Of a stretch of DNA of 64,000 nucleotides, positions 2,832-39,411 are shown in pieces. Within the stretch, counting starts at the first letter, position 1; every line of letters starts with the position of its first letter. Origin of the DNA: Victivallales bacterium (GTDB taxonomy: Bacteria > Verrucomicrobiota > Lentisphaeria > Victivallales > G963678815); the NCBI GenBank assembly GCA_963678815.1, contig OY787460.1, positions 6,394,861 through 6,458,860 of the forward strand, written 5' to 3'. The position numbers and the translations under genes were made by a program. A model generated the notes under the pieces. That model was not told where the DNA came from. It made no database searches and saw nothing but the letters and a program-made list of their open reading frames with translations.

Positions 2832-2849
2832 TTTTTACCTCCATAAATG

Positions 2850-2879
2850 ATTATAACATACATATGCACATTAATTCAA
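2850..2879 (-). promoter_or_regulatory. Proximal sigma70-like promoter of the 2055-2831 pseudopilin gene
   Basis: Minus strand reads TTGAAT (2879-2874), an 18-nt spacer, then TGT-TATAAT (extended -10, 2858-2850). The predicted start falls just upstream of the GGAGGT Shine-Dalgarno. Confidence 0.4.
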
Positions 2880-3104
2880 ATACCTGACGTCAAACTTTCC
2901 AGCAAGTTCTTTCCGCTTGCTTAGCTCCCCGCTAATCCCTCGCCAGTAGTCACTTTCACCATTTGGTTTTCCCCTCATGGAATTGTCTTTCAGTCAGCAT
3001 AGGGAATCACATTGATTTGCAAGCTATTATGCCCGAATAGCTTCCGGATTGATTTTTCGATCTCGCTCCTTTTATTCCTGCTCGGATCCAGCACCCTAAC
3101 TTCT

Positions 3105-3149
3105 TAATCGATTATGATGTATAATACCCTATCCGGAGCGGATTGTCAA
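3105..3149 (-). promoter_or_regulatory. Distal promoter with overlapping palindromic operator TAATCGATTA
   Basis: Minus strand reads TTGACA (3149-3144), exactly 17 nt, TATTAT (3126-3121), then the palindrome TAATCGATTA (3105-3114) at the predicted transcription start. The same architecture occurs at 58301-58351. Confidence 0.5.
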
Positions 3150-3247
3150 GACGTTTTATATATATTGTTCAGCTTTTTCTTCCACAAAACCAGAAATTCA
3201 ATCAGGACAATGCTTGAAACATCAGCATTTCCCGGCACTTGTAATGC

Positions 3248-3259
3248 ATAATCGATTAT
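3248..3259. promoter_or_regulatory. Perfect 12-bp palindrome ATAATCGATTAT (auxiliary operator candidate)
   Basis: Exact palindrome. Its centre lies 144 bp from the centre of the 3105-3114 copy. I could not read a convincing promoter beside it. Confidence 0.45.
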
Positions 3260-3359
3260 GTTGCTGACGGCAACAAAGGGGATCAGTGGCAATTCCACCT
3301 CTTTCCAAGGTGAGCATTTTCAGTTATACGATATATTCCAGCATGGCCGGACAGGAGCT

Positions 3360-3632
3360 TCAATGAAGCTCAACAGAGAATTCTAATTCAATTATGCAAA
3401 TATTATCCTTCCAAACCTGGACGATCCGGAAATTCTCCCTGAGCTCAATTACCTTCTCTACGAACTCAGGATTCATTTTGTGATTAAAAAATAATCCGCC
3501 ACCGTTCCTCGGGAATTCCAACGTCCCTCCGACTTGGCTATACGCATGTCGTCTGATTTCCCCGGCGGCTTCGATATCTCACGGCAAGCCATACGCAGCC
3601 CAACGTCCACGATCATTCATTATTTCTTCCAT
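3360..3632 (-). pseudogene. Small ORF (90 codons) interrupted by a single in-frame TGA at codon 18; unknown family
   Basis: The ATG at 3632 is 2 nt after the stop of the upstream Gfo/Idh/MocA gene (operon-like spacing). Translation: MEEIMNDRGRWAAYGLP-TGA(3581-3579)-DIEAAGEIRRHAYSQVGGTLEFPRNGGGLFFNHKMNPEFVEKVIELRENFRIVQVWKDNICIIELEFSVELH, with the stop at 3362-3360. Too short after the TGA to appear in the ORF track. Confidence 0.3.
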
Positions 3633-3634
3633 GA

Positions 3635-4594
3635 TTATTGAAATGATTGAGCTTTTATCATTTCAATAATTTTCATTGTTTTCACACAATCACGGAACGA
3701 AGAACTTGTTGTTTGTTTCCGGCTTTTAACAGCATCCATAAATTCCCGGTTTTTCTCCATATATCCACCATAAATGTGAAATTCGTCACTTCCGGCAACT
3801 TGCTTCGAATCAAACTTAATTCCTTCATAATCGTTGTTTCGATAAAAAGTAGCTACCCCTTCAGGTTCCGCATCCACATATACTCCAGGAGCATGAATCT
3901 CTATTTGAAAAACCCGTCGTCCTGAAGCAAAATTATTAAAAACATATCCTGTAGAACCATTATCAAAATGTAATGTTGCACCTATACAATTAACATCCGG
4001 AGTCTGAATATGCTTGCTAAAGCTCTCTACTTTAACTATCTCGCCACCACACATCCAGCGAACAGTGTCAACGGCATGGGATCCATCATTAGTCAGATGA
4101 TCCGTTGCCATTGTCCTTGGTTTCAGGGCACATTTGAAAAATTCACAACTGGAGTAGAAAACAGGACCATGTTTTAAACATTCATCCCGCATTTTTTTCA
4201 GCAAAGGACATGAACGCCGTTGATAGCCCACCTGAGTTATGCAATCATTTTTTTCCGCCAGATATGCAAGTGATTCCGCTTGATGCAAGGTAATCCCCAT
4301 CGGTTTTTCAATGAATAAATTCATCTTCTCCTCAAGACACCATGTCCATATATCGTACATATAATGGGCCGGACCGATAACATATAATGCATCCGGAGCT
4401 GTTTTTTCTACCATTTTCCTGTAGTCATTAAACCTCTTTTCAACACTGTATTTATCAGCAGTCTGATTTAAGCGTTGTTTGTCAATATCACAAATTGCAT
4501 CGATAATGACATCATCAAAAGATGCCAGAGATGGATAATGCACCATATTGGCAAGTTCTCCGGCGCCGACAAAAGCAATTCTTATTTTACTCAT
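3635..4594 (-). CDS. Gfo/Idh/MocA family NAD(P)-dependent oxidoreductase
   Basis: N-terminal Rossmann motif KIRIAFVGAGELANMVHYP, followed by the EKP motif (LFIEKPMG) and the C-terminal alpha/beta domain typical of the family. Confidence 0.85.
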   Translation of the reverse strand: MSKIRIAFVGAGELANMVHYPSLASFDDVIIDAICDIDKQRLNQTADKYSVEKRFNDYRKMVEKTAPDALYVIGPAHYMYDIWTWCLEEKMNLFIEKPMGITLHQAESLAYLAEKNDCITQVGYQRRSCPLLKKMRDECLKHGPVFYSSCEFFKCALKPRTMATDHLTNDGSHAVDTVRWMCGGEIVKVESFSKHIQTPDVNCIGATLHFDNGSTGYVFNNFASGRRVFQIEIHAPGVYVDAEPEGVATFYRNNDYEGIKFDSKQVAGSDEFHIYGGYMEKNREFMDAVKSRKQTTSSSFRDCVKTMKIIEMIKAQSFQ

Positions 4595-4657
4595 GATTTT
4601 CCTTGGTATTTTCGTTATTTAATCACTAATGATGAAAAATGTAGCTGTTGGATATTT

Positions 4658-5614
4658 TTAATTATTTACTTTAAGAATGCTTTTTTCATTCCCAGAACGC
4701 CAAATCAAATCAAGCATTCTCATAACGCTTTCCATCCGTTTTATTGAAAGCGGTGACTTTTTATTTTCAACCATTTCGATGATTTTTGCGATAGTCTGCT
4801 GGTAGTTGTTTTTCGTTTCAAAAGGATAATGTGATGTTTCCCCTGTTATAAGACCTCCATAATAGCAATAATCCATGCCGTTCCCGAGTTGCAGTGTTGC
4901 GATAAGACCATTTTTATATTTAATATTAACGGCATGAGTATCCGCAAGGTTATCCCGTTTAAATAAATGATGATCACCATGTGTCAGTGTTGAGAAAGCA
5001 GAATAGAGCTCATCTATATCCTCAAGACCGATAATTTCATCCAGGATGTCGACGCCATGTACACCGAGATATACCAACGGACCACCGGTATTGTCAAACG
5101 ACACGTGCCATTCACTTTCCGGAGTCAGATAACTGTTAACAGTGTGATGCAACGCAATAAAGGCAAGCTGAATACTACCGAGTTTTTGTTCACGAACAAG
5201 CCGCGCGGCTTGTTGTACAGCATCGTCATATCGCATTGCCGAAGTGCTCAAAAGAGGCGTTTCTGTCATCTTTGCACATTCAAGTATTTTCGAAGTATTT
5301 TCAAGATTGTTTGCCAGCGGCTTGGATATGTAGAGAGGCACTCCACGTTTCAGCACTTCGCATGCATATTTTGCTGTATCCCGCGTTTTGACATCCATAA
5401 TAATCAACTGGACATTATCCGCCACTTCCTCCGGAGTTTCCGCTTGTTTTTCAAGTTGATATTCTTTCTGAAATTCGGCGCAATTCTGCTTATCTTCGTC
5501 CCAAGCCATTGCCAATTCCAAACGCTCGTAATTTTCACTCATACAAGATGCAAATCTTCTTGGCATTCCCGAACAACTTGTTCCGACGAATCCCACTCTT
5601 ATTTTTTTAGACAT
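4658..5614 (-). CDS. Gfo/Idh/MocA-like oxidoreductase paralog with atypical dinucleotide-binding loop
   Basis: KIRVGFVGTSCSGMPRRF replaces the usual GxGxxG/A loop. PLYISKPLA corresponds to the EKP motif with E replaced by S. Same size and layout as its neighbour. Confidence 0.65.
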   Translation of the reverse strand: MSKKIRVGFVGTSCSGMPRRFASCMSENYERLELAMAWDEDKQNCAEFQKEYQLEKQAETPEEVADNVQLIIMDVKTRDTAKYACEVLKRGVPLYISKPLANNLENTSKILECAKMTETPLLSTSAMRYDDAVQQAARLVREQKLGSIQLAFIALHHTVNSYLTPESEWHVSFDNTGGPLVYLGVHGVDILDEIIGLEDIDELYSAFSTLTHGDHHLFKRDNLADTHAVNIKYKNGLIATLQLGNGMDYCYYGGLITGETSHYPFETKNNYQQTIAKIIEMVENKKSPLSIKRMESVMRMLDLIWRSGNEKSILKVNN

Positions 5615-5641
5615 AATTACCTTTGGGGTGTTAAGTTATTG

Positions 5642-7147
5642 TTATGCATTATTTTTAATGCTTTTGCCCTTCAGGAATTCTCTCCCGAGCTGATTGAAGT
5701 CAAATTGATTATAATCCTTCATCACAATCAATCTTTCTATACTGCGATTATAGTTATAATCATGTTTTAATATTATTTTATTTGCCCGTTCTTTACCTCT
5801 TAATTTCTTCATTATTTGTTCCGGGAACCAATTATTTTGGATTTTTTGCAAAAATCCGTCAACTATTTCTTTACAATCTACATCATTATATCTGTCGACT
5901 TTTTCATGAGGATCTTCTTCAAGATTAAAAAGCTGGAAAGATTTAAATTCGTGATAATATACAAATTTCCATTCATTTGAGCGAATCATGCAAGATGGTT
6001 TTCCTCCAAGGAGACCGCAAAACTCGGAAAAAGTTTCGTTTTGCCATTTTTTCTCTATATTATTTTTTAACAGCAATGACTTAAAACTTTTCCCCGATAT
6101 ATCCGGAAGTTGTTTCGCTCCAGCCATATCCAAAATGGTAGGGCCGATATCAATTAAATTTACTACGTTCTTGTTTTTAATATTTTTTCGGGGTTTTTCA
6201 GGCCATGATATGATGAGGGGAACTTTGACGGAACCATTGTAGAAACAGCTTTTCCACCACATCCCGTGTTCATTTGCCATATCTCCATGATCAGAGCAAT
6301 AAATAATTATAGTGTTTTTAGATTTTGGATGTGAATCGACTGCCTCCAGAATTCTCCCCAGGTTTTCATCCATTTCAGTAATCAGGCCGTAATATGCAGC
6401 TAAAGCCCTACGGTTTTGTTCAACTGTCAGTTCATCAACTTTGCGCCGTTTTCGCCAAATCCTGATTGCGGGATTTATTTCAGCAATATTTTTTTCGTTT
6501 GAATCTGCTGGTTCAATTGCACTGTAGTAATATTCAAACAAGTCCCTCCTGCAAATCAAAGGATTGTGTGGAGATATCATACCTGTGACCAGACAAAAAG
6601 GAGCAGAGGAATTTTCATGGCTTTTGATATATTCACAAGCTCTGTCAGTCACTTTCCTGTCAAACAGCTGATAACCAGTTTTGCCGTAACCAGCTACTTC
6701 AACAGCATATTTTGTTTGTCCGGTTGTTCTGTTGAATCCAGAGCCTAAAATCTCAGGTGACAGAAACGAACTTGCAGGAACACAGTCATCGAATATACGT
6801 TCCTGAAAACCATGAAACTGGTCGATTCCCCGGAAATGCATTCTGCCGCAAAGTGCAGTATCATAGCCGGAATTTGTCAACGAATGTGCAAATGTGGGTT
6901 CGTCAGAAGCTAAAACACAGTCATTCGACCATACTTCAATCTCACTGGGGTATTTTGAAGCCATAAACGCCATTCTTGAGGGAACACACAAAGGAGATGG
7001 GCAATGTGCTTCAGTAAACATTATGCCATTTGCAGCCAGCCTGTCAAGATTTGGGGTTTTAATTATTTTATTTCCGGTACACCCCATTAAATTTGCATTA
7101 TGCTGATCAGACATAATTAAAACGATATTTGGTCTTTCTTCTTTCAT
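5642..7147 (-). CDS. Sulfatase (formylglycine-dependent, Cys-type), no signal peptide
   Basis: MKEERPNIVLIMSDQHN...SPLCVPSRMAFMASKYP (C-x-P-x-R) and later CSDHGD. The ATG overlaps the upstream stop (ATGA at 7144-7147). Confidence 0.9.
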   Translation of the reverse strand: MKEERPNIVLIMSDQHNANLMGCTGNKIIKTPNLDRLAANGIMFTEAHCPSPLCVPSRMAFMASKYPSEIEVWSNDCVLASDEPTFAHSLTNSGYDTALCGRMHFRGIDQFHGFQERIFDDCVPASSFLSPEILGSGFNRTTGQTKYAVEVAGYGKTGYQLFDRKVTDRACEYIKSHENSSAPFCLVTGMISPHNPLICRRDLFEYYYSAIEPADSNEKNIAEINPAIRIWRKRRKVDELTVEQNRRALAAYYGLITEMDENLGRILEAVDSHPKSKNTIIIYCSDHGDMANEHGMWWKSCFYNGSVKVPLIISWPEKPRKNIKNKNVVNLIDIGPTILDMAGAKQLPDISGKSFKSLLLKNNIEKKWQNETFSEFCGLLGGKPSCMIRSNEWKFVYYHEFKSFQLFNLEEDPHEKVDRYNDVDCKEIVDGFLQKIQNNWFPEQIMKKLRGKERANKIILKHDYNYNRSIERLIVMKDYNQFDFNQLGREFLKGKSIKNNA

Positions 7148-8466
7148 ATTATTTTATCTATTTTCACAACTTTTTTTCCCATCATGGCTTGATCCGCGGC
7201 AAATCCTATCAGATGACCATATATGGAATCTTCCAAACATGTACAAGTCAGGGGATTCTGCTTGCCTTTTATATAATTTATGAAATCCTCTACCAGGCGT
7301 TCGTCTCCGCCACCATGTCCTCCAAAAGCTCCTTCGGTGTCTCCGGCAATATTAAGACTGATATTCTTAGATTTATATCCTTCCTCTGATTTTGGGTCAA
7401 TATGATAAACACTGAAGTTGCCTTCTTTGAAAATTCCTCTTATTTCCCCCTGTGTGCCTATAATATGAATTGAACGTTCAGGTTTTGCGGTACCGCCAAT
7501 CATGTTATGGGTTGCGGTGGCTCCATCTTCAAACTCAATAATGATTGATTGATGATCTACCACATTATTGTCACATTTCCATACACAGCGACCATGTGGA
7601 TTATCATTTTTCAATGATTCGATTTTTTGTCTGATTGTTGGATTCTTTATATTTTCGATTGAGGCCCAGACATATGCGCCCCACCTTTCAGGATGATCAA
7701 TATATTGCTTGTAAGCTGAATACGGACATTCTTTCTCCATTATGCAGTCAACTAAGCATTTTGTTCCTGAATGCTTCGGGGCATTTTCAGGTTTAAAATT
7801 CATCAAAGAGCCAAAACTCGAAACATATTTTGGGAAAGCCCCACTTTTCATCCATAAAATAATATCAAGATCATGACAGCTTTTCTGCATCAACATGGAA
7901 GATCCGCATTTTTCATGATTGTTCCACTTTCCGCGGATAAAAGCGGTAGAGAAATGATGATGACATACGTGTTCGGTTGTTTGGATATTAACAATAGTTC
8001 CGATTTCACCACTAATGACCTTTTCTTTTATAGCTGTATAAAAAGGCGCATAACGCAATACGTGGCAAATCATTATTTTTCGTTCAAACTTTTTGTTTGC
8101 CTCAACCAATTTTAACATATCCCGCTTATTTGTTGCAATAGGCTTTTCCAGCAATATATCATAACCTTTTTCAATAAGCGGCAATGATGTTGGAACATGC
8201 TGACGGTCCATCGTTCCATTTATAATTACATCCGACATTTTATTCTTTTCAGCTACCTCCGTTGCCGAATAAAAACATTGTGAATCAGAAAGATTAAAGA
8301 TCTTTGCGGTCTCTTTTCGTCTGTTAGCATCAGGATCTGCAACCCCCACTATTCTAAGATTTTCCGGATATTTTTCCGAATAACGAGCGTACTGAATTGC
8401 TCTATGTCCAGCACCAATAATTATTGCTGTAATTGGGTTTTTATTTTTCATATCCATCAATTCCAT
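7144..8466 (-). CDS. Gfo/Idh/MocA family oxidoreductase (long, ~440 aa form)
   Basis: ITAIIIGAGHRAIQYARY Rossmann motif, LLEKPIA motif, and a long C-terminal extension. The start could also be one of the Met codons 3-5 codons downstream. Confidence 0.85.
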   Translation of the reverse strand: MELMDMKNKNPITAIIIGAGHRAIQYARYSEKYPENLRIVGVADPDANRRKETAKIFNLSDSQCFYSATEVAEKNKMSDVIINGTMDRQHVPTSLPLIEKGYDILLEKPIATNKRDMLKLVEANKKFERKIMICHVLRYAPFYTAIKEKVISGEIGTIVNIQTTEHVCHHHFSTAFIRGKWNNHEKCGSSMLMQKSCHDLDIILWMKSGAFPKYVSSFGSLMNFKPENAPKHSGTKCLVDCIMEKECPYSAYKQYIDHPERWGAYVWASIENIKNPTIRQKIESLKNDNPHGRCVWKCDNNVVDHQSIIIEFEDGATATHNMIGGTAKPERSIHIIGTQGEIRGIFKEGNFSVYHIDPKSEEGYKSKNISLNIAGDTEGAFGGHGGGDERLVEDFINYIKGKQNPLTCTCLEDSIYGHLIGFAADQAMMGKKVVKIDKII

Positions 8467-8560
8467 CTGTATCTTTTGAAGTTAATCTTGACCTTAAAGT
8501 AAGAATTTTTTAATTAATTATCATCCCTTTGCGCCGACGTATATATGGTCTTTTGCTAGT

Positions 8561-8749
8561 GTCGTGTTTCACTAAGAACCTTGATAATGCGTGAGCTATT
8601 TTTACCGTTTCAGTTGTGCTCGCGGCTGCAAGGTGATGCAAACCCATCTCTGCCAGCCGCGAGCGTGACTGAACGGAAAAAGAGTCACGCCGCAAGGCGG
8701 TTGCGCCCTTTCGCAGCAACATTATCCAAGGTTATTGGTGAAACACGAC
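8561..8749. ncRNA. Intercistronic GC-rich nested-hairpin element (structured RNA or ERIC/MITE-like palindromic unit); family not recognised
   Basis: Closing inverted repeat: GTCGTGTTTCAC TAAGAACCTTGATAATG (8561-8589) pairs with CATTATCCAAGGTTATTG GTGAAACACGAC (8720-8749). Inside are an 11-bp stem GCTCGCGGCTG/CAGCCGCGAGC, GTGACT/AGTCAC, and CGCC-GCAA-GGCG (a GNRA loop on the + strand). It begins 1 nt after the stop of the 8751-9989 gene. Confidence 0.35.
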
Positions 8750-8750
8750 A

Positions 8751-9989
8751 TTAGACTGTTGCAAGTTCATGCAGGCTGTGCGGGTAATATATGGAAGGGA
8801 ATTGGCGGTATTCGTTTAAGTTCACTTCCAGCCCTTCCCGACTCCACGGAACATTTCCGAGTTCTGAGGGTAACGCATTCTGGTTGAAGCACCGGAACAA
8901 TACCTCTTGCAATGATCGTATCCAGGTTGTTTTATCGCCTTTTGCGTCAACGCTTAGTTCGATAAATTCTTCGGGAAAGGATACTATTTCCGGCATTGAT
9001 TCGTGTGCTCCATTCAGGCACAAAGTCTGGGAACTAGCAGCTTTTACTCCGCAAACGGCTTTTCTTCCGTTTTTTACGGCTTCAACACAATCTTTAAATT
9101 TTTTCAACTTATTATCGTTCGGACTCCCATAATTAATTATTTTTCCATTTTTTAATTTCGCGGAAATCTGCGTACGGTCATAATAGATATGTGCATGCTC
9201 AAATTTGAATTCCCCGCATGGACCAATCACTGAGGGAACCGCATGGGAAGTATAAAACAATATATCGGTTTTGCATTCGGTCAGGCAATGAATGAAAGCA
9301 GTATCGAAATTTTCAATATCATTCGCCCGGTAAAGTTCCGCTGTAACTTTCAAAGGTTTTGCACTTGAAAAAATATCTTTACCGAGAATATAGAACATAT
9401 TGTGCAAATAATGGGCAGTGGCATTATTGACTGGACTGTCTAAAATCCAACGATTCAAAGACCTTATTTTACCTGCCCAATTATTACGGTTATAATACGA
9501 GAAAGCCCTCGGCCAGCTAATGAATGCTTTGAGCAACAACGGCTTGCCAAATATACCCTTGAGAATATCCCTCTTCAATTTCTGAATTGCATCAGAAAAA
9601 GACCATTGGTATCCAACAGCGAGAAAGCCGGGACACTTTTCCTCGGCTTTTATCAGTTTCAAGGCTTCCTGATATGTTGCGCACACTGGTTTCTCACAAA
9701 GTACGTTTGCTCCGTTTTTCAATGCTTTCATGGAAATGGGCGCATGCAGGTGAATCGGCGCTGAAATAACAACAAGATCCGCGGTTTCAGAGAGATAGAA
9801 ATCTTCCAGAGTATCAAATACCGGAATTCCTAATTCCTTCAGCTTCTGGTAATGGATGGAGTTTTTTGCATAGGGATCAATAATGCCTGAAAGGAGGATA
9901 TTTTTATTTAAATACTTGAATGCTTCTTTTAAATAAAAATCTCCATAGCCGCATATGCCAACCAGAGCAACTTTAACTTTATTATTCAT
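8751..9989 (-). CDS. Gfo/Idh/MocA family oxidoreductase
   Basis: KVKVALVGICGYGDFYLKEAF Rossmann motif and VLCEKPV motif. GAAGGA Shine-Dalgarno upstream of the ATG. Confidence 0.85.
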   Translation of the reverse strand: MNNKVKVALVGICGYGDFYLKEAFKYLNKNILLSGIIDPYAKNSIHYQKLKELGIPVFDTLEDFYLSETADLVVISAPIHLHAPISMKALKNGANVLCEKPVCATYQEALKLIKAEEKCPGFLAVGYQWSFSDAIQKLKRDILKGIFGKPLLLKAFISWPRAFSYYNRNNWAGKIRSLNRWILDSPVNNATAHYLHNMFYILGKDIFSSAKPLKVTAELYRANDIENFDTAFIHCLTECKTDILFYTSHAVPSVIGPCGEFKFEHAHIYYDRTQISAKLKNGKIINYGSPNDNKLKKFKDCVEAVKNGRKAVCGVKAASSQTLCLNGAHESMPEIVSFPEEFIELSVDAKGDKTTWIRSLQEVLFRCFNQNALPSELGNVPWSREGLEVNLNEYRQFPSIYYPHSLHELATV

Positions 9990-10008
9990 TTTAATCCTTC
10001 AATATTCA

Positions 10009-11781
10009 TTACCCGGCATATCCTTTTTTTACTTCGTGATATGCCGCTTTCGGCTTTAATTTATCCGTCAACAACCCTTTGCGGTTGAACCCTTTCTGGA
10101 AACGCGACAACTTGATGGGGGTTTCATAATCATTCAGGACGAATATCGCCATTCCCTGCAACGTTTTTTCCTGAGTCAGTATTTTAAATAATTCCTGGAG
10201 TTTCCTGTGATATACAAGCTGCCGCTCTTCTCCGAAATCATAACCTTTTTCTCCTAAAACCCCATCGATTCCCGCCTCCGCCAAAATCACCGGTTTTCCC
10301 CAGGATGACGCCTGCCGGATTTTATCATACTGCTTTGGAAATTCATCCTTTCTGCCCGGTTCCGCGCCATCATAAATTCCCCGGTAACTGTTAATGCTGA
10401 CTATATCCAATAGTTCGATCAAAGCTTCCGGGCAACTGTGCTTTAACGTTTCTTCTCCAGCGCCTTCAACACCACCGGTATAGGTTACTAACCGGCTTGG
10501 GTCGTTTTCACGGGCATAGCCAGCCGCCTCAATAAAGAAACCCAAGTTGGATTCTTCTTCATCCTGAAGAATTTTCAAGCACTCGTTTCCAATGCTCCAG
10601 ATAATAACCGAAGGTGAATTCCTATGCTCGCAAATCATGGCTTCAAGCATCTTAAGGGCTTTTCGGCTCCGGGCCGGTTTCTGCATCGTATAAATCCAAT
10701 AGGCTGGGACTTCCTGCCAAACAAGGATTCCGGTTTTATCACATGCTTTTATGAAATCCTTGCCCTGCGGACGGTGTCCCGCGCGCGCGAAATTGCAGTT
10801 GAGATCTTTAAGGATATCAATAGTTTTATTCGCACTTTCCGGGCCAAGGGAAAAAATTCCTCTTTCCGGATCTTCGATCCAGGTTGCTACTCCTTTTAAT
10901 AAAATACTTTCGCCATTGAGTAGAATATCCTTGCCACGGATTTTGATTTCCCGCAAGCCAACTTCATCATGCCATACGTCACCGCTGCTCTGCATTTCAA
11001 TTTGAAGAAGATACAAATTCGGATTATCCGGAGACCAGAGTTTCACCTTATCCACATTCAGGGAAATAATACTTGAATACCAGGAACCTGGACGAGACTT
11101 AATTGTTTCATTTAAAACAGTTTCATTATTATCGGAAGAAATCAGTTTAACATCAACTTCTTTTAAATTGTCTCTACTCCCGGCTTCGGCCAGAACCTTT
11201 ATCTCAATCTCGACTTCATCATTAGTAATCCGGGTCGATACCGCAACGTCCCTTATATATTCCTTTGGACGGTAATACAATCTTACCGGACGAATTATTC
11301 CGCCATCGTGAAACCAATCATGAATAGTTCCCGGAACATCATCTTCATGCCTTGTGGCATCCACAAAAACCATGAGGCGGTTTTCCTCTTTCAGCTCCTT
11401 TGAAACCTCAAAAGTAAAAGGAATGCAGCCGCCTTCATGTTCGCCAATAAAAATTCCATTGAGGAAAACGCTGCACCGCTCATTTACGGCTTCAAAGTAA
11501 AGAAAAACCTTCTCATCCGTTCTGCTTAAACGAGCCGGAAACCTGTTGAGATAGACAACATTTCCCTCATAATATTTCAACTCCTTATGGAGACGGGTAA
11601 ATGCGCCGGGAACTGTTGTCGGCCAAAACGCGTCATCATCGTATGAGGGAAACCAGAAATTTTCTTTCCGGATTTTCTTCCACCATTCCTGTTTTCTCGA
11701 CCTGTTCATGGGATCAGGCAATAATCCCCAGCCATCTTTCAGTTCAATATTCTCTATTTGACCAAAATTGATTCTGTACAT
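10009..11781 (-). CDS. Glycoside hydrolase family 2 (beta-glucuronidase/beta-galactosidase-like), cytoplasmic
   Basis: Sugar-binding domain FLYFEAVNERCSVFLNGIFIGEHEGGCIPFTFEV. TIM barrel with NCNFARAGHRP, acid/base motif IIWSIGNE and nucleophile region PVILAEAG. At 590 aa it is of beta-glucuronidase-like length. No signal peptide. Confidence 0.85.
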   Translation of the reverse strand: MYRINFGQIENIELKDGWGLLPDPMNRSRKQEWWKKIRKENFWFPSYDDDAFWPTTVPGAFTRLHKELKYYEGNVVYLNRFPARLSRTDEKVFLYFEAVNERCSVFLNGIFIGEHEGGCIPFTFEVSKELKEENRLMVFVDATRHEDDVPGTIHDWFHDGGIIRPVRLYYRPKEYIRDVAVSTRITNDEVEIEIKVLAEAGSRDNLKEVDVKLISSDNNETVLNETIKSRPGSWYSSIISLNVDKVKLWSPDNPNLYLLQIEMQSSGDVWHDEVGLREIKIRGKDILLNGESILLKGVATWIEDPERGIFSLGPESANKTIDILKDLNCNFARAGHRPQGKDFIKACDKTGILVWQEVPAYWIYTMQKPARSRKALKMLEAMICEHRNSPSVIIWSIGNECLKILQDEEESNLGFFIEAAGYARENDPSRLVTYTGGVEGAGEETLKHSCPEALIELLDIVSINSYRGIYDGAEPGRKDEFPKQYDKIRQASSWGKPVILAEAGIDGVLGEKGYDFGEERQLVYHRKLQELFKILTQEKTLQGMAIFVLNDYETPIKLSRFQKGFNRKGLLTDKLKPKAAYHEVKKGYAG

Positions 11782-11800
11782 TATTATTCTACTTTATTCA

Positions 11801-14026
11801 TTATTTCTGATTGTCATACAATATCTTCAAAGAAGGGTTCGCTATAGTAAAATTGTTAATTGAGGACATACTAATTGATAATACAGTTGGATACGGCATA
11901 TTACTGTCTTTAAAAAATTCAGGGGATATTGAGAATTTATAACTGTAATGCTGCCATTGTCCGTTTCCTTTCGCGGCATTTCCCCTGAATTCTCCCGTTC
12001 TGGTCCATCTTGAAGTTCCGTATGTATTCAGGCCATAGCCGCTCTTTTCTTTGCCAGTTCTGATGCTAACATGGGTTATGGTGACTTTTACGGAATCACC
12101 TTTTGCCGCATTGTAATCAAACTCCAATTTCAAAGGAATTTTCTGCTTTGAAGGATTTTCAAAATCCATAAATAAAAATGGTTTCAAGTTTAGAACATAT
12201 TTCGCCGGAATTTCAATTGCGGAGTTATCTTTTGTAACAGGATTCGTAGTTCTTTTCAGGTCTTCAATTGTAATTTTACCTTTATTCCCCCTGATTCTCC
12301 ACGGTGTGCGCTTCCCGGCAATAATGAAACCTGGATCGGAAACAAGGTTTTTTTCCTGCGCCTTCTCTTCTTTATTAAGTTCAGCAAAAGAATTCCTTAA
12401 ATAGGAATATATCAGATTGCCATCATTTTTTTTCTGTTCTGACATTGTAATATTATCGATTGCTTTTTCACCCTTTGCATTCTTAAGCTGCCAAAGATAC
12501 AAACTCCTGGGAATTGCCGGAATGCCGTAAGATATCCAGTTCCCGAAACGTGCCCGTGTAGGAGATGACCTTTTAGAACCGATGCAACCGACAGCCCAGT
12601 TGGTGTCACCGGTTTCGGGCATATCGCAAACTATCTGGGCGGCGCGGCAGTTCCAGAGAATGTGGTTAACTCCCTGCCAGGCATGACTTCCCGTACCATT
12701 TCTTAAGTCAATATTTCTTTGTGGAGCCATCACATTATCATAAAGATATCCGGTACACCATTTCATGTGGGGGCCTACTGCGTCAAACCCCTTTTCAATA
12801 AGACAGTCCAAAAAAACATTCGGTCCTGCCGCCGCTGAACTGGATACAAATGCATGGCGCGCATTATACGCATAGCACCTCTGGACAAGCACCTTTGATC
12901 CATTTACCATAAAGGCGTATCTTCTGCCGCCTCTAATCCTTGAAACCGGACGCAGGCAGGCACAGTCCTGTACTGTTATGTTTCGGGCTCCGTGCTCAAC
13001 TTCCACCGCTGACAGAAAAAAATGCAGCGCGGTCATGTTTTTTACCCAGCAGTTTTTTGCTTTATCTACATAAACGGCGCTGCGCGCATGTTCTTCCGGA
13101 TTTTTGTAATTTTCCGGATTTTTGTAATTCTTTTCCGAGAAATAACTAACCAGTCGAATATTTTCTACACCACTTTGGGAAATTCTGTTATCATTGTTTA
13201 TTTTGTAAACGACAGCTTTTTTAATAGTATCTTTATCAATATAAAAAAGCATTGGAGCATCAAGGGTTAGCTTATTGCCGTTTATTTTCATTATTTTTCT
13301 TTCACAGTAAAACCTTCCGGTGATGCCTCTCCATTTTTTCTCAAGATTAAGCTTTTTGAGCCAATTTTTGTTAGGAATAATCTGAATTCTGATCTCATCC
13401 CCAACAGACAACTTGTCAGCGTTTCCGATTGTGACGGTTTTAGTTCCGACCGGAATATTTTTATCAGTCAAAACACCAATTTCATCCAAGCTTGAATAAA
13501 ATGCCCTGGTAGGTTTTTCCGGATTTACATTTCCAAGGTAAATAAGCGAATGCTGCCTGTAACCTCTGCCATAATTATTTTTAACTTTTAAATTTTTCTT
13601 TGTGTCAATAACCGTTGTGCCGTTTGAAAACTGTCCTTCTCCACGCAACACAACTCCGCCTTTACCGATTACAAGATATCCCGCAACCCGATATGTTCCT
13701 GCTTTCAGGAGTAACGCTCCGCGTAAGCCATCCTTGTCCGGTTTCATCTTTCCGATTTTATCAAGCGCAGCCTGGATGCGTTCACGGTCATCACCGTTTT
13801 TTTGAGGCGAAAGAACAATCTTCACCGGCACTTCCGGTAACTTCACGCCTCCCCCTTTATATCCAACGCTGGAAAAATCGGGAATAACATTTCCGGCTTT
13901 GTCCGGAATGCTGATAATATCTGTAATATCTTTCGGCTTCGCGGATTTAAGAGGTTTTGAATCAGCGGCATTGATTATTGAACCACTAAGTAAAAATATA
14001 ACGATGAGATGCTTTATTAAGTTCAT
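11801..14026 (-). CDS. Secreted right-handed beta-helix (pectate-lyase-superfamily-like) protein with C-terminal beta-sandwich
   Basis: Signal peptide MNLIKHLIVIFLLSGSIINAADS. Entry motif DFSSVGYKGGGVKLPE...RIQAALDKIG...GALLLKAGTYRVAGYLVIGKGGVVLRGEG. The specific enzymatic activity cannot be read from the sequence. Confidence 0.6.
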   Translation of the reverse strand: MNLIKHLIVIFLLSGSIINAADSKPLKSAKPKDITDIISIPDKAGNVIPDFSSVGYKGGGVKLPEVPVKIVLSPQKNGDDRERIQAALDKIGKMKPDKDGLRGALLLKAGTYRVAGYLVIGKGGVVLRGEGQFSNGTTVIDTKKNLKVKNNYGRGYRQHSLIYLGNVNPEKPTRAFYSSLDEIGVLTDKNIPVGTKTVTIGNADKLSVGDEIRIQIIPNKNWLKKLNLEKKWRGITGRFYCERKIMKINGNKLTLDAPMLFYIDKDTIKKAVVYKINNDNRISQSGVENIRLVSYFSEKNYKNPENYKNPEEHARSAVYVDKAKNCWVKNMTALHFFLSAVEVEHGARNITVQDCACLRPVSRIRGGRRYAFMVNGSKVLVQRCYAYNARHAFVSSSAAAGPNVFLDCLIEKGFDAVGPHMKWCTGYLYDNVMAPQRNIDLRNGTGSHAWQGVNHILWNCRAAQIVCDMPETGDTNWAVGCIGSKRSSPTRARFGNWISYGIPAIPRSLYLWQLKNAKGEKAIDNITMSEQKKNDGNLIYSYLRNSFAELNKEEKAQEKNLVSDPGFIIAGKRTPWRIRGNKGKITIEDLKRTTNPVTKDNSAIEIPAKYVLNLKPFLFMDFENPSKQKIPLKLEFDYNAAKGDSVKVTITHVSIRTGKEKSGYGLNTYGTSRWTRTGEFRGNAAKGNGQWQHYSYKFSISPEFFKDSNMPYPTVLSISMSSINNFTIANPSLKILYDNQK
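13094..13129. repeat. Perfect 18-bp x2 tandem duplication inside the beta-helix CDS
   Basis: TTCCGGATTTTTGTAATT occurs twice back to back. On the coding strand it encodes NYKNPE-NYKNPE. Confidence 0.9.
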
Positions 14027-14043
14027 TCTTTTTTATTCCTTTT

Positions 14044-15447
14044 TTATTTTTTACCAGTTAAAAATTCCTTTTCATTATATACATGATTTTGATAGCCTGG
14101 ATCGTGCTCAGGCTGTTTAGCATCAACCTTCAGCTCATAGAAATGATCGCTTGTTTTCTCAACATGTTCAGACAGCAAAGTTCTATGTTGTTTCAGCACC
14201 TCCAGGTATTCCGGATTTTCAGCAAGATTTTTAGTTTCTCCGGGATCGTTTTCTATGTCATAAAGCTCTTCTCCGTCATTTTCCAGAAACCTTGTATATT
14301 TAAATTTATTTGTTCGAATCATACGTCCGGGAGCTACCGGCCCAAACTCGGATCCCTGCCGCCATTCCGTCAGTAAATATTCGTGAATCTGACCACTGTC
14401 TTTGTTCTGGCAAATTCCCGCAAGACTTTTTCCGGACAAACCATCCGGAGCGGAAATTCCAGCGAAATCACATAATGTGGGAAACAAGTCCAGGAGTGAA
14501 ACTAATTGCTTGCGCTTTCCGCCCGCGAACCCGGCAGGCAAAGCTCCCGCGAAAACCATAGGAACTTTTGCCGCTTCTTCATAGAAATTGCCATGAGTGC
14601 TGACAAGGCGATGAGAACACATACCATTGCCATGATCCGCCATCAGAACAATAATGGTATTATCATTTTCCGGACTGGATTTTAAGGCATCGATCACCAT
14701 TCCGATATGCCGGTCCACGACTTCAACATAGTGGCAATATGCCGCCAGATAATGTTGATAATTTTCCCTGCTCCATTTTGCGGCTTGAGCAAGCCGGCGG
14801 TTCCGGCAGCACAAACGCTGTATGGAATCAGCCCGGTTGTCAAAGTCCTCTATTTCAAAGTTGCCGGGCAAAGACGGCAAATCTTTGTTCAAAGGCAAGT
14901 TATCGTGAGGCCCGATATTGTCATCCATCCAGGGAAGAACATCATGCGGATTGAAGAAATCGGCAACACACAGGAATGGTTTTTCGTGTTCTTCTTTCAG
15001 GAATCCGGCACAAAGCTCAGCGGTCCGGCGATCCATGAAAGTACCGTAATAGTCATTCCACGGCGCTTCCTCCCCGGGCGTCACAATCCTGGTCTTATTT
15101 GAATTCCGGCAATTAAAATCTCTCAATGCATGCGCATCATGCCTTTTACCAATATGTTCAGTTTGGTATCCGGCCTTTTTGAATACTTCTCCGAGAGTCG
15201 TTATCCCCTGATCAATTTCCAATGTTCCGGAGTTCCATTCTACGCCAATTTCATGTGGATATCTGCCAGTCCAGAATGAAGACCGTGAAGGCACGCATAG
15301 CGGATAATTGCAGTACGCATTTGAAAAGGAAATCCCGCTTTCAGCAAGATTATTAATATTCGGAGCATTGACATAATCATTATTAATCATCTTTGGCGAA
15401 AGATGATCAGAGATAACAATTAAAATATTCGGTTTTTTTTCTGACAT
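14044..15447 (-). CDS. Sulfatase (Cys-type), no signal peptide
   Basis: MSEKKPNILIVISDH...YPLCVPSRSSFWTGRYP. I prefer the ATG at 15447 (AAGGAAG upstream, no overlap with the GNAT gene) over the track start at 15504. Confidence 0.9.
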   Translation of the reverse strand: MSEKKPNILIVISDHLSPKMINNDYVNAPNINNLAESGISFSNAYCNYPLCVPSRSSFWTGRYPHEIGVEWNSGTLEIDQGITTLGEVFKKAGYQTEHIGKRHDAHALRDFNCRNSNKTRIVTPGEEAPWNDYYGTFMDRRTAELCAGFLKEEHEKPFLCVADFFNPHDVLPWMDDNIGPHDNLPLNKDLPSLPGNFEIEDFDNRADSIQRLCCRNRRLAQAAKWSRENYQHYLAAYCHYVEVVDRHIGMVIDALKSSPENDNTIIVLMADHGNGMCSHRLVSTHGNFYEEAAKVPMVFAGALPAGFAGGKRKQLVSLLDLFPTLCDFAGISAPDGLSGKSLAGICQNKDSGQIHEYLLTEWRQGSEFGPVAPGRMIRTNKFKYTRFLENDGEELYDIENDPGETKNLAENPEYLEVLKQHRTLLSEHVEKTSDHFYELKVDAKQPEHDPGYQNHVYNEKEFLTGKK

Positions 15448-15475
15448 TCTGTTGTCTTCCTTATAATTGTGTTTT

Positions 15476-16327
15476 TCATCCCACTTCCGGGCCGGCAATA
15501 GCATAAATTATTTCCGGTTTACCTGGGAATTTATTTTCACCGCGAAACATGCGGGTAAGTTTTCTTTGATATTTAAATCGATATTTATTCAGTATATTTT
15601 CGGCATTAACATTTGATAACGCATCCATATAGACCGTCTCCCCATATAATTCGTCAAGAACCTTTTTCAGCAGCGCTTCAGCCGCGAAATTACTGTCCGC
15701 CACCCATGGCCCTATATACCATGCCCTTGATCCGGGACGCACAAATATGTATCCTTTCAGATCGTTTTCATCTTCAGAAAATGCATAAGCCTTCCCTGTA
15801 TCCTGAATACTTTCCAGCAGCTCCATCCTGTCTGCGCCAAAACCACGCAAATCATATCGTGCTAAACTATCCGGGGGTAATCCTCCTAAATCAACGATAC
15901 TTTCCGGTGGCATATCTATTTTGGGAGTAACAACTTGCCAGCGATTCAAAATATATTCATCCTGAAATCCAAGTTTAACATAAACAGGTTTGCCCATCGG
16001 AGTTGCATCGAGTTTAATACTTGTCACTTTCTGTTCATCCAGATATTCAAGGCATTTTTTCATTAATCCGCCGCCTACGCCTTTTCCTCTCAGGTCAGGA
16101 TGAACAAGCACCATACCTATCCAGGCAACTTTATTCCGGTAATTAATGGTTGTGGCAGTACCTGCCGGCTTTCCATCGAAAATCGCAAGGAAACATCCAT
16201 TCGGAGCAATTTCAATATATCTTTTCCAGTCATCAACAGTTTGATTCCAACCTGCGATGTTCACCAATTCCATGGCAAAATCCAAATATTGTTCATTTAA
16301 TATTTTAAATTTCAATTGCGATTTCAT
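15476..16327 (-). CDS. GNAT family N-acetyltransferase (two-domain)
   Basis: Acetyl-CoA motif A: VLVHPDLRGKGVGGGLMKKCLEY. The ATG overlaps the stop of the upstream MttB-like gene (ATGA at 16324-16327). Confidence 0.8.
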   Translation of the reverse strand: MKSQLKFKILNEQYLDFAMELVNIAGWNQTVDDWKRYIEIAPNGCFLAIFDGKPAGTATTINYRNKVAWIGMVLVHPDLRGKGVGGGLMKKCLEYLDEQKVTSIKLDATPMGKPVYVKLGFQDEYILNRWQVVTPKIDMPPESIVDLGGLPPDSLARYDLRGFGADRMELLESIQDTGKAYAFSEDENDLKGYIFVRPGSRAWYIGPWVADSNFAAEALLKKVLDELYGETVYMDALSNVNAENILNKYRFKYQRKLTRMFRGENKFPGKPEIIYAIAGPEVG

Positions 16328-17703
16328 TTTAAATTCATCTTTGCAAAATAATGCTGTTCAATTTTTAGAAGTTCTTTAATTTGCTCCGGCTTTAAAACCG
16401 GCTCCGGATATTCTTTCAGCAGGTTCGCCACTTTCTCTTTAGCCTTATCATTCAGTGACTTCGCGCCTGAATTCCGCCATAATTCCCGCGATTGCCTGCA
16501 TAATATTTCAGGCTCGAAATTTTCCCGAAAGTGCCTGAAGGTATGTTCGCATCCCAGAAATTCGCCGCCAATTCCAATTTCACGGACAACATTCAGGGCC
16601 AGTGTTTCCGGGTTTATTTCAAATCCCCGTTTAAAACGTTTTGCGTAAGCGATCAATTCGTTGTCGATCACGGCCTGCTCCATCGAAAGCGCCATTTCCG
16701 ATTCCAGCTGCCCGGCGCCCCATATCAAATTGACGCCGCCTTCAATATGGGAATGAAAACCGAACATTTTCTCCGCTATGGCTTGCCCGTCCGGGATCAT
16801 TGCCTCCGTGGAAACCCAGGAACAGGAAGGCAAATTGTAGAACCTTCCCATTGCGGCGGACGCTTGCGCCATCAAGGAATTTTCCGGACCGCCGGTAACG
16901 GCAATCATACTTTTCATATCCATAACATGCGCCAATCCAAGATTGTAGACACAAGGGCGTTCTGGTTCAAGAATCTGATTGATTACCAATCCTGCAAGGA
17001 TTTCGGCGTTCCCGACAGCAATACTTCCGGCCAGAGTCACCGGCCCGGAAGCTCCGGCCATGGGTTCGCCATTGACGGTAACGGGGATTCCCTGTCCGGC
17101 GGAAGCGGCAAATATTTCCAGGGCCAGATTTGTCCAGCGCAATGGGCCATGAGCGGTGAACCCCATTGAAAACCATGGACTGTCACTCACTACTTTTTTC
17201 ATTTCGATCAATGCTTCACATCCTGTTTTTGTGCAGGAAAGGACCCGTAAATGTTTACGCGTATTATTTGCCATGACACGTAATCCCACAAAATCCCGGG
17301 CGCCCGGTGGCACGTCATCCATGGAAACCCCAAATACTCCGTCAACATGTTCAAGGTGTTCCATCAGAAAGGAAAATTTTCCCATATCCTCCATACTAAA
17401 AGGTCTTGTTTGATTGTCTTCCACTATTCTAAGGGCGGGGGTGCTCCAGAATAATGGTTCGGATCGAGATGTCAACATCCTGGAACTTCCCGAGCGATCT
17501 GAAAAAACAACTTCAGAAGGACAGAGCTTCAAGTATTCCTCGATCATGTTTTGTTCAAGCCGGACTACCTCCGCCGCATTTCCAGGTTTCGCGCCGTTTT
17601 TCATCAACATATCGAGGATTATTGAATGCTCGATTTTGATTCCGGGATTTTCCAGAAGCGCAAGGGACGTCCGGTGAATTTCTTCACATTGTTTCTGATT
17701 CAT
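16324..17703 (-). CDS. MttB-superfamily (trimethylamine methyltransferase-like) protein, non-pyrrolysine
   Basis: N-terminus QCEEIHRTSLALLENPGIKIEHSIILDMLMKNGAK, central GASGPVTLAGSIAVGNAEILAGLVINQIL, and a length of ~460 aa all fit the family. The reading frame is uninterrupted, so there is no in-frame TAG. Confidence 0.75.
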   Translation of the reverse strand: MNQKQCEEIHRTSLALLENPGIKIEHSIILDMLMKNGAKPGNAAEVVRLEQNMIEEYLKLCPSEVVFSDRSGSSRMLTSRSEPLFWSTPALRIVEDNQTRPFSMEDMGKFSFLMEHLEHVDGVFGVSMDDVPPGARDFVGLRVMANNTRKHLRVLSCTKTGCEALIEMKKVVSDSPWFSMGFTAHGPLRWTNLALEIFAASAGQGIPVTVNGEPMAGASGPVTLAGSIAVGNAEILAGLVINQILEPERPCVYNLGLAHVMDMKSMIAVTGGPENSLMAQASAAMGRFYNLPSCSWVSTEAMIPDGQAIAEKMFGFHSHIEGGVNLIWGAGQLESEMALSMEQAVIDNELIAYAKRFKRGFEINPETLALNVVREIGIGGEFLGCEHTFRHFRENFEPEILCRQSRELWRNSGAKSLNDKAKEKVANLLKEYPEPVLKPEQIKELLKIEQHYFAKMNLK

Positions 17704-17741
17704 TTTTTTTACTGTTTTCAGGTAAGTATATTCAATATCCG

Positions 17742-18512
17742 TTACGGAACATCCGTATGGATAAAACCCCAGGCACTATCTCTGACTGCCTCAAGATAAG
17801 GTATGCTTTCCACATGATAATCCAGAAACAGAACATTTTCAGCGTTATTGTGGCGAAACGTTGAATCCTGTTCAGGTCTTCCATACATGCCATTGGAACT
17901 GCCTCCAAACAAAATCATCTGGTCACATTCATACAACAACGGCAAATTCGACATATTCTTGCCGCTTCCGGTAATGAGGTCCGGATTGTCTATGAGCATG
18001 ACCGGGGCCCAAAGATCGAGACAGCCAATTACTTGGTTTTGCATATAAGTCCGGTTCTTTATGACGTTGTCGGGCGCGGGAGTGGCAGGACACCAAAAGA
18101 CGGTATTTGGCTTTTCCTGAGTATCATCATTGGCCTCCATACCTATATATGAACATATCTGTGCATCCCAGCAATTGAATGCAGGGGTTTTCGTTGATTT
18201 TGTGTATGCAGGATACCGCCCATTATACTCCTGGGTATACAGCGAGTATGCCAGTCCAAGTTGTTTCATGTTATTAACGCATGTCGATTGCAACGCAACC
18301 TCCCTTGCTTTTTTTAAAGCCGGAAGCAGCATAGCGGCTAATATAGAAATTATCGCTATCACCACAAGTAACTCGATTAAAGTAAACGATATAAACCGGC
18401 GGCAACCCCGGTTTGCCGTTCCAGCAGGCACAACGTTACTCTCTGTCCGTACAAGGCCGGGAACCTTGCGGCCCGAGACCGTTCCGAAATGTTTTTTTCC
18501 ATCACCGTACAT
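17742..18512 (-). CDS. Prepilin-type N-terminal domain protein, DUF1559-like, with 46-aa leader
   Basis: ...[38 protein letters not shown]-terminal [14 protein letters not shown] is a degenerate H-X9-DG (DG replaced by DY). GGAGGA Shine-Dalgarno precedes the ATG at 18512. Confidence 0.85.
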
Positions 18513-18585
18513 ACGTCATCCTCCGTTTTGTTTTATTTTATACTTGTGAATATCCGCCGTTTTAGCTTTATTTGAATATGCATAA

Positions 18586-19872: not shown

Positions 19873-19874
19873 TT

Positions 19875-24257: not shown

Positions 24258-25370
24258 TTAATCCGCTTCCTCTTTATGAACATTGTCGGCTCCGGGACGC
24301 CACTTGCAATGAACCCGGCCTTTGAAATCTAGCCCCGCTTCAAGCAGTTCGTCTATCCGGTGTTCAGGGATACCGATCAGATTTATTCCTCTGTTTACGG
24401 TATGCTCCAGAATTTTACGCATATCGTTATACGCCGGCTGTGACATATCAACAGTATAGAGTTTTTCAATATCTGTTGCCTGGTCTATGTAATGGTCTCC
24501 TTTCCCGCAAAAGTGCATCATTCCGCCACCGAGCTGATCGTATATTTCCGAGTCGTACGGTCTGCCGAATTCGCGATACATTTCCGGGGAAAGATTCATC
24601 GCCGAATCATTCCTGATGATCACCGTTCCCCGATAAAGCGTTCCCCAGTAAATACCATAACCATCTCTTTTTACCGGAAATATCTCATGCCATTTTTTTA
24701 TGAATTTAATATAAGTTTGAGTAATAAGCGCAAGAAAATCCTTTATCAGTTCCGGTTGGTCGAACAAGTCCAGGAAAAACCCGCTTCCCCATAAAAGTTC
24801 ACATACGTCCAGCGGTCCCTGTAAATCAGGATGATAGATGCGGGTATTTTTTTTTACCTTCGGATATTTCTCAAGCTTTTCCCTGATATAACCACCCGTA
24901 TCGAAAACACGCCCGCCAAGCCCGGAGTTAAGGTCAGGAACCCCGGCGTCAAGCATTTTTTTCGCGGAATCACCCGGGTTATCGGACGGCAGGGAAATCG
25001 GCATGGTGTTCAGTTCTTCATCCATGTAAAAAATTTCCGCGCCAAAAAGCGACGGCAGGATTGCGGTTCCGTAATTTGCCCCCGCGCAAAGAATGAATCC
25101 ATCGCCTTCCCGAAGATGCTTAAGGCAAGTACAAAATTCATTAACCGTCATGGTTTCAATATCAGCAAGGGTTTGGTTTATCGATATTCGCGGAATTTCA
25201 AATTTAATATCTTTTGCTTTTTCGCGCCGTGAAGGTCTGAAAACGTCTCCTGTGAATTTGCCCTCATGGAATCCGACCCACTCGGAATACAGTTTTTCTT
25301 CCGTTTCCGGAGCAATAAGACGTTCGAGTTCTTCCAAGCAAACCGATGAAGTTTTCACAGTATTTCTCAA
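24258..25370 (-). CDS. Uroporphyrinogen-decarboxylase (URO-D)/MtaA-like TIM-barrel family protein
   Basis: Family-typical C-terminal half: RNDSAMNLSPEMYREFGRPYDSEIYDQLGGGMMHFCGKGDHYI. The N-terminal part is divergent. The annotated start is a TTG, so the start is uncertain. Confidence 0.7.
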   Translation of the reverse strand: MRNTVKTSSVCLEELERLIAPETEEKLYSEWVGFHEGKFTGDVFRPSRREKAKDIKFEIPRISINQTLADIETMTVNEFCTCLKHLREGDGFILCAGANYGTAILPSLFGAEIFYMDEELNTMPISLPSDNPGDSAKKMLDAGVPDLNSGLGGRVFDTGGYIREKLEKYPKVKKNTRIYHPDLQGPLDVCELLWGSGFFLDLFDQPELIKDFLALITQTYIKFIKKWHEIFPVKRDGYGIYWGTLYRGTVIIRNDSAMNLSPEMYREFGRPYDSEIYDQLGGGMMHFCGKGDHYIDQATDIEKLYTVDMSQPAYNDMRKILEHTVNRGINLIGIPEHRIDELLEAGLDFKGRVHCKWRPGADNVHKEEAD

Positions 25371-39348: not shown

Positions 39349-39411
39349 TTTTATTTATAATTCCACTGCTTCTACCGTGTTGCCTGAACAAACAATGCCA
39401 TCTATACCATA

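Follow-up and report, generated by a model that had tools for sequence, protein, structure and literature searches.

A nested palindrome between two cistrons

The stretch of DNA analysed here (hereafter the window) covers 64,000 nucleotides (nt) of contig OY787460.1 and carries at positions 8556 to 8754 a 199-nt nested palindrome, which is located between two genes of a long minus-strand gene cluster for the breakdown of sulfated glycans. The gene upstream of the palindrome (8751..9989, minus strand) encodes a 412-amino-acid (aa) Gfo/Idh/MocA oxidoreductase, and its TAA stop codon (8753..8751) lies in the foot of the palindrome. The gene downstream (7144..8466, minus strand) encodes a 440-aa oxidoreductase of the same family. 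The two genes are part of a run of 13 genes (3635-21257) in which the other spacers measure -29 to 73 nt, compared to 284 nt for the anomalously long spacer that holds the palindrome. Subtracting 195 nt from this spacer leaves 89 nt (8467..8555, read on the minus strand), a length near the 63-73 nt measured for the largest of the remaining spacers. The palindrome also looks foreign in composition to the DNA around it. The GC content was 0.57 in its core (8590-8719) and 0.50 over the whole element (8556..8754, to which no strand was assigned), compared to 37-38% in the two outermost arms, 38-40% in the flanking genes, and 30% in the AT-rich remainder of the spacer, in agreement with an earlier sequence-only reading of this locus that had described a GC-rich insert in AT-rich flanks.

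The palindrome is built from a closing helix (P1) that encloses three further helices (P2, P3, and P4). Since P2 is off-centre relative to P1's axis, the helices meet in a four-way junction instead of forming a single long hairpin. P1 comprises 33 base pairs (bp) between a left arm at 8556..8589 (GC 0.38) and a right arm at 8720..8754, the latter including the upstream gene's stop codon, and is interrupted by one G/A mismatch (8576/8734) and one bulged base (C8726). A stretch of 12 bp inside it is perfectly complementary (8561-8572 with 8738-8749). When read on the sense strand, P1 is a helix of about 32 bp that is broken up by single-base mismatches. P2 (8591..8688) is a long imperfect hairpin with an apical region at 8629-8653, for which most pair probabilities were about 0.6-1.0; its top is a perfect 11-bp GC stem (GCTCGCGGCTG/CAGCCGCGAGC, 8618-8628 / 8654-8664) and its lower stem is formed by the pairing of TTTTTCCGTTCAG with CTGAAACGGTAAAAA, which belongs to the minimum-energy structure. 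The two remaining hairpins are short and are given here for the plus strand: P3 (8689..8698; GCC-GCAA-GGC) has a loop of the GNRA type and a possible fourth pair (C8688-G8699) that competes with the base of P2, and P4 (8700..8717) has 6 bp, a CCCTTT loop, and includes the nonamer TGCGCCCTT (8702-8710).

All sequence features named in the sequence-only reading were present in the window, among them the 11-bp GC stem, GTGACT...AGTCAC (8665-8686), and CGCC-GCAA-GGCG (8688-8699). Its closing helix of ~29 bp with 12 perfect outer pairs was recovered as well and proved longer, at 33 bp (8556-8589/8720-8754), and instead of starting 1 nt past the upstream stop codon, as had been proposed, the helix overlaps this codon. 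The proposed alternative long-range pairing is no alternative, being the lower half of P2 in the minimum-energy structure. Switch-like, mutually exclusive structures had been suggested on account of it, and a riboswitch-like switch at equilibrium was rejected because the rival GTGACT/AGTCAC hairpin had an ensemble probability of 0.0 on both strands.

The significance of the fold was assessed by comparison with 200 shuffles per run in four runs (two strands, each with RNA and DNA parameters), and in each of these runs 0/200 shuffles reached the native folding energy. With RNA parameters the minus strand folded at -100.6 kcal/mol (z -10.9) and the plus strand at -109.6 kcal/mol (z -12.6), and the corresponding values with DNA parameters were -60.8 kcal/mol (z -9.9) and -66.2 kcal/mol (z -12.8). 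The fold of the element was retained when it was folded within 500 nt of messenger RNA (mRNA) context. There is thus little difference between the strands in how well they fold, either as RNA or as DNA, as would be the case for a palindrome at the DNA level. The plus strand is more stable by about 9 kcal/mol because five transition-type mismatches in P1 and P2 (8559/8751, 8573/8737, and 8615-8617/8665-8667) are G.U pairs there and C.A mismatches on the sense (minus) strand. All five positions (5/5) show this orientation, for which the two-sided probability is 1/16 if the positions are independent; three of the five are adjacent.

Screening for known RNAs, genes, and single-stranded-DNA sites

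Searching the whole window against Rfam at the gathering thresholds gave 0 matches, and at E <= 10 only microRNA-precursor hairpin models matched the locus (11-22 bits compared to thresholds of 40-90), so that the statement of the sequence-only reading that no RNA family could be recognised was borne out. ARAGORN, used for the detection of transfer RNA (tRNA) and tmRNA, reported nothing at the element. The 70-aa open reading frame (ORF) at 8510..8722 on the minus strand had been dismissed as an artefact, and this was upheld by our searches: it matched no family, a search of 5.8 billion protein clusters at E <= 10 yielded no homologue, and we regard it as a by-product of the element and not as a gene. 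A 57-aa ORF on the plus strand had no real homologue either; it matched only long repeat adhesins, by way of a chance 'SRLxGDANPxL' word that is repeated many times in them.

Signals for the start and the end of a transcript were searched on both strands. No terminator-like site was detected by the scan for intrinsic terminators in 8467-8760, and no T run follows P1, P2, or any other helix of the element on either strand. The plus-strand promoter proposed in the sequence-only reading (TTGACC-17-TAATTA) exists as a sequence, but its second hexamer agrees with TATAAT at 2/6 positions only and the site was absent from the list of the promoter scan, in which sites in this region were no more frequent than in shuffles. 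These results bear on the possibility of an independent plus-strand transcript, i.e., an antisense small RNA or a structured non-coding RNA of a new family, which we consider very unlikely. Such a transcript would be in keeping with the better folding of the plus strand with either set of parameters (-109.6 vs. -100.6 kcal/mol for RNA and -66.2 vs. -60.8 kcal/mol for DNA), with the fact that the five wobble-type positions of P1 and P2 are G.U pairs throughout, and with the GNRA-type GCAA loop that P3 has on this strand. It would however have to do with a poor promoter and without a terminator, its Rfam matches are generic microRNA-hairpin noise below threshold, homologous sequences in which covariation could be assessed were not found, and the five-of-five bias is of modest weight given its two-sided probability and the adjacency of three of the positions.

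Three further kinds of known elements were compared with the palindrome. Integron attC sites have RYYYAAC...GTTRRRY core sites, form an imperfect palindrome of 57-141 bp, and are found in a cassette array beside an integrase gene. An attC site was rejected since the element ends in CTAGTGTCG...CGACATTAG without RYYYAAC/GTTRRRY cores, is too long with its 199 nt, and lies in a window without an integrase gene. A retron msr-msd region was rejected as well: the order of helices on the minus strand (the closing helix followed by the two short hairpins and then the long one) is similar, but no reverse transcriptase domain was present in the 40 large ORFs, and the gene downstream of the element encodes the Gfo/Idh/MocA oxidoreductase and not a reverse transcriptase. 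More generally, a scan of 40 large ORFs of the window found no transposase, reverse transcriptase, relaxase, integrase, or Rep protein.

The third candidate was an origin of transfer (oriT) of the MOBQ type, for which a nick-region consensus of NWACCNNTAAGTGCGCCCTYNN has been described (PMC3832669). The nonamer TGCGCCCTT on the plus strand, located in P4 directly 3' of P3, corresponds to the core of this consensus. The match covers 9/15 specified positions and lacks the conserved TAAG and WACC, and the window encodes no relaxase; the candidate was rejected, and the nonamer is probably a chance match. A broader version of this idea holds that the element is the relic of a single-stranded-DNA site acting on the plus strand (an orphan oriT, a single-strand replication origin, or an attC-like site). 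The position of the motif directly 3' of a hairpin and on the strand with the G.T wobbles would suit such a site, yet the motif was picked post hoc among many that could be checked, its agreement with the consensus is partial, the ends and the length of the element do not fit attC sites, and neither a relaxase nor a Rep protein nor an integron integrase is encoded in the window. We regard this origin as highly improbable.

Flanks, possible origin, and possible effects of the element

The element ends in the context ...TTTTG C-TA-[GTGTCGTGTTTCAC ... GTGAAACACGACAT]-TA-G ACTGTTG..., i.e., its flanks have the form C-TA-[GTGTCGTG...CACGACAT]-TA-G with ends of the TGTCGTGTTTCAC type. The left TA (8557..8558) is contained in CTAG (8556-8559) and the right TA (8752..8753) in TTAG (8751-8754), where it is part of the minus-strand TAA stop codon, and the two together constitute a putative target-site duplication. 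The tetranucleotide CTAG occurs 15 times in the window compared to 244 occurrences expected from base composition (16-fold depletion). One of the 15 is at the left edge of the element, and given the depletion this coincidence with the palindrome's very edge is unlikely to have arisen by chance. These flanks are as expected if an element had inserted into 5'-CTAG-3' with duplication of TA in the manner of the IS630/Tc1-mariner type; elements of the IS630 family duplicate TA, and IS630 prefers a TA within CTAG according to the passage of PMC2170065 that cites Tenzen & Ohtsubo 1991. The empty site is predicted to have read ...GTCTAGCAAAAG..., or 5'-AACTTGCAACAGTCTAGCAAAAGACCATATATAC-3' on the minus strand. 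Joining of the flanks on the minus strand gave ...GCA ACA GTC TAG CAAAAG..., in which the upstream reading frame and its stop codon are preserved.

The sequence-only reading had left three interpretations side by side, i.e., an mRNA-processing or stability element, an antisense small RNA, and a palindromic unit resembling ERIC sequences (from enterobacterial repetitive intergenic consensus) or transposable elements of the miniature inverted-repeat type (MITEs). Of these the last is favoured by the composition, the length of the spacer, the 33-bp inverted ends, and the C-TA...TA-G flanks. With moderate confidence we therefore interpret the palindrome as a putative orphan, non-coding MITE-like relic of mobile DNA of about 193 bp (8559-8751), in which the arms of P1 would be the terminal inverted repeats (31-33 bp) that enclose a GC-rich, internally self-complementary core. 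MITEs are characterised by terminal inverted repeats, target duplications, the lack of a transposase gene, and stable stem-loop transcripts (PMC3184786; PMC10969869), and they are often located at 3' ends of genes, are co-transcribed with these, and occur in copy numbers per genome as low as 1 (PMC3184786; PMC10969869). The element has terminal inverted repeats, is short (199 nt, below about 400 bp) and without a transposase gene, and is predicted to give a stable stem-loop transcript.

The insertion may have taken place as follows. The target would have been the TA of a CTAG that supplied the gene for the 412-aa oxidoreductase with its TAG stop codon, and this TA would have been duplicated in the manner of IS630/Tc1-mariner-type transposases. 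The upstream stop codon would then have been rebuilt as TAA from the duplicated TA and the terminal A of the element, which would have left both neighbouring genes intact. Since there is no terminator-like U tract on either strand, the element is expected to be co-transcribed, and it would be present in the polycistronic mRNA as a branched hairpin of roughly -100 kcal/mol between two cistrons. By analogy with Correia elements this hairpin could be a substrate of RNase III, and by analogy with ERIC sequences and repetitive extragenic palindromic (REP) sequences it could block 3'-to-5' exonucleases or alter the decay of the upstream mRNA; in either case the stability of the upstream half of the operon might be uncoupled from that of the downstream half. 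A ribosome that terminates at the UAA codon would cover the outer 5' arm of P1, and for this reason the foot of P1 would be unable to form as long as translation of the upstream cistron runs to its end.

Several observations weigh against a MITE-like origin. CTAG is itself palindromic, and the flanks can be read equally well as an extension of the inverted repeat by 4 bases with one G.T mismatch; because the flanking bases prolong the palindrome in this way, a duplication and an inverted repeat cannot be told apart here. A duplication of 3 bp (TAG/TAG) or 4 bp (CTAG/TTAG) fits the flanks equally well. A 4-bp duplication of the form YTAR is that of the IS5 group. The element is GC-richer than its surroundings, unlike MITEs, which are described as typically AT-rich (PMC10969869), and its interior, a non-concentric multi-hairpin fold, is of greater complexity than in most MITEs. 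The orientation of the wobble pairs is a weak hint of strand-specific selection, which is not expected of a decaying DNA palindrome.

Further points of this kind come from the searches for relatives. The search for additional copies that had been suggested along with the sequence-only reading was carried out for the window and showed a single copy in 64 kb. No match to the whole element was obtained by blastn against Escherichia coli genomes, plasmids, and phages. Two exact patterns of the end sequence had 0 matches in 185,579 species genomes, scans that missed even the copy in the window and hence say little on the copy number in the source genome. The end sequence had 0 matches in viral contigs and 2 in metagenome contigs, which shared only the 21-mer and were attributed to chance, and the left arm alone matched only chance 18-mers in plasmids at E <= 10. 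In viral contigs the GC stem was matched by 2 GC-rich hairpins from phages, both unrelated. No parent insertion sequence (IS) with matching ends was found in the window, the species genomes, the metagenome contigs, the viral contigs, or the plasmids.

A single copy, as far as seen, would also be compatible with a palindrome that was generated locally by template-switch or inverted-duplication errors and is neither mobile nor functional. This origin would require several independent events, since two long palindromes that are not concentric (P1 and P2) and two short hairpins would have to be produced, and the core does not appear to be a copy of local DNA given that its composition is unlike all neighbouring sequence. 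We judge it to be very unlikely.

The location of the element exactly between two cistrons, where it begins at a stop codon, raises the question of a native function in the operon mRNA. It could be a selected cis-acting RNA element of the minus strand, i.e., an intercistronic processing or stability module that sets different expression on either side. The very stable sense-strand fold (-100.6 kcal/mol, z -10.9), its retention in the mRNA context, and the lack of a U tract, which would permit read-through, are what one would look for in such a module. On the other hand folding is weaker on the sense than on the antisense strand, and the former carries the C.A mismatches where the latter has G.U pairs, a pattern that weakly argues against selection on the operon mRNA and leaves room for a function of a plus-strand RNA or of single-stranded DNA. 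The foreign-looking composition, the resemblance of the flanks to a TA/CTAG target duplication, and the lack of an Rfam match likewise speak against a native RNA element, which we consider unlikely.

Conservation of the element in this position could not be shown with the homologues of the flanking genes. The best match of the 412-aa protein in the protein collection had 52% identity, and from the lack of any closer match the protein itself is apparently absent from the collection. The 440-aa protein was 100% identical to an entry of the collection (P0126), which is encoded on a contig of 8,611,128 bp together with a 73% paralogue (P0127) that is not encoded in the window, and its best homologues beyond the source genome were 61% identical. 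A syntenic relative of the gene pair was not found among the contigs read; the three homologue contigs of the 412-aa protein showed unrelated gene neighbourhoods. As a separate observation, the C-terminal tail of the 412-aa oxidoreductase (…IYYPHSLHELATV; 8754-8792, minus strand) is up to about 13 residues longer than those of seven aligned homologues. This tail is coded by DNA beyond the element.

Because the wobble pairs, the GNRA loop, and the nonamer of the MOBQ nick core are all on the plus strand, we also considered that the element as a whole is a functional structure specific to this strand, either a new structured non-coding RNA with a four-way junction or a single-stranded-DNA site, such as an orphan site that resembles oriT or primes replication and is borne by a mobile palindromic cassette. 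We hold this to be distinctly unlikely.

If the palindrome is a MITE-like relic, as we favour, it would represent a previously undescribed MITE-like family in a bacterium that degrades sulfated glycans. To our knowledge, and with no literature search aimed at this question, no small mobile elements have been described for the Planctomycetes-Verrucomicrobia-Chlamydiae (PVC) group. The insertion would have occurred exactly in a stop codon with neither of the neighbouring genes damaged, and the 13-gene catabolic operon, having a hairpin of about -100 kcal/mol in its middle, would provide a natural test of the effects of insertions on the decay of polycistronic mRNA. The value of the finding would be local, i.e., for annotation (the 70-aa ORF should not be called) and for the expression of the operon in its host.

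Gene content of the window and comparison with known systems

The cluster that hosts the element encodes a heparinase II/III, several sulfatases, a GH2 glycoside hydrolase, many Gfo/Idh/MocA oxidoreductases, MttB-family proteins, a GNAT protein, and a GntR-SBP regulator, and DUF1559/prepilin-type proteins are encoded in the window as well. The combination of DUF1559/prepilin-type proteins with many sulfatases suggests the gene content of the PVC group. Genes of the MttB family (trimethylamine methyltransferase-like) and URO-D-like genes were located at 16324-17703 (minus strand), 53061-54548 (plus strand), and 35623-36726 (plus strand), where they lie among sulfatase and glycoside-hydrolase genes, and the same neighbourhood of URO-D and Gfo/Idh/MocA genes was present at a distant locus (L005, 5873-9212). 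Four large proteins that belong to the glycan-degradation clusters had no Pfam match at E <= 1e-5; these are encoded at 11801-14026, 21522-23009, and 24258-25370 on the minus strand and at 40373-41905 on the plus strand (741, 495, 370, and 510 aa, respectively).

DUF1559 genes were found at 1126-1854, 2055-2831, and 17742-18512. A further DUF1559/prepilin-type gene (38480-39193) is flanked by a 40-nt AT-rich inverted repeat (38271-38310 / 39402-39441, 78% complementary) and has a tandem paralogue of 72% identity at 39523-40242. In the minus-strand cluster 803 nt (2832-3634) contain no ORF of >= 60 aa and only fragmentary short ORFs on the minus strand; this region does not represent a degraded version of the DUF1559 genes next to it, had no Rfam match and no long inverted repeat, and may be either the remnant of a gene or regulatory DNA. 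ARAGORN called a tRNA-Val (GAC) at 59065-59132 on the minus strand, inside and antisense to a 366-aa ORF (58540-59640), which is probably a false positive since at the Rfam gathering score no tRNA was found anywhere in the window.

The element was compared with four groups of small or palindromic elements of bacteria. The flanks of the form C-TA-[element]-TA-G fit the TA duplication and the CTAG preference of IS630/Tc1-mariner elements and their MITE derivatives as far as these are given in the above passage of PMC2170065, and in length the terminal inverted repeats are comparable to theirs (24 bp in ISY100). Unlike in these elements there is no transposase and no IS with matching ends, and the assignment would be based on ambiguous flanks alone. 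REP sequences and bacterial interspersed mosaic elements (BIMEs) resemble the element in being GC-rich hairpins of polycistronic transcripts that are able to affect mRNA stability (PMC3184786). REP sequences are however about 35 bp long, highly repeated, and without long terminal inverted repeats, whereas the element measures 199 nt and is branched.

ERIC sequences share with the element an imperfect palindrome over most of their length, 5'-TA-3' flanks, and an intergenic location at 3' ends of genes, and when located in transcribed intergenic regions they can influence how the upstream mRNA decays (PMC3184786). They differ from it in length (about 127 bp vs. 199) and in host, being elements of the Enterobacteriaceae and not of the phylum concerned here. 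A blastn comparison of the element with 5,426 E. coli genomes at a word size of 11 bases revealed no similarity to ERIC.

Correia elements (Correia repeat enclosed elements, CREE) of Neisseria are likewise non-coding, have lengths of about 100-160 to 200 bp, and possess terminal inverted repeats of roughly 26-33 bp. They are flanked by TA, are often located beside or between genes, and are co-transcribed with these, as is predicted for the element described here. Their paired inverted repeats are cut by RNase III in the RNA (PMC2649163; PMC10969869). On reading the sequence no resemblance to the Correia sequence was seen, and neither an IHF site nor an outward promoter was identified in the element. 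Correia elements are present in many copies per genome as opposed to the one copy seen here, and the element differs from them in its GC-rich interior with multiple hairpins. In comparison with these systems the element would not represent a new class of mechanism.

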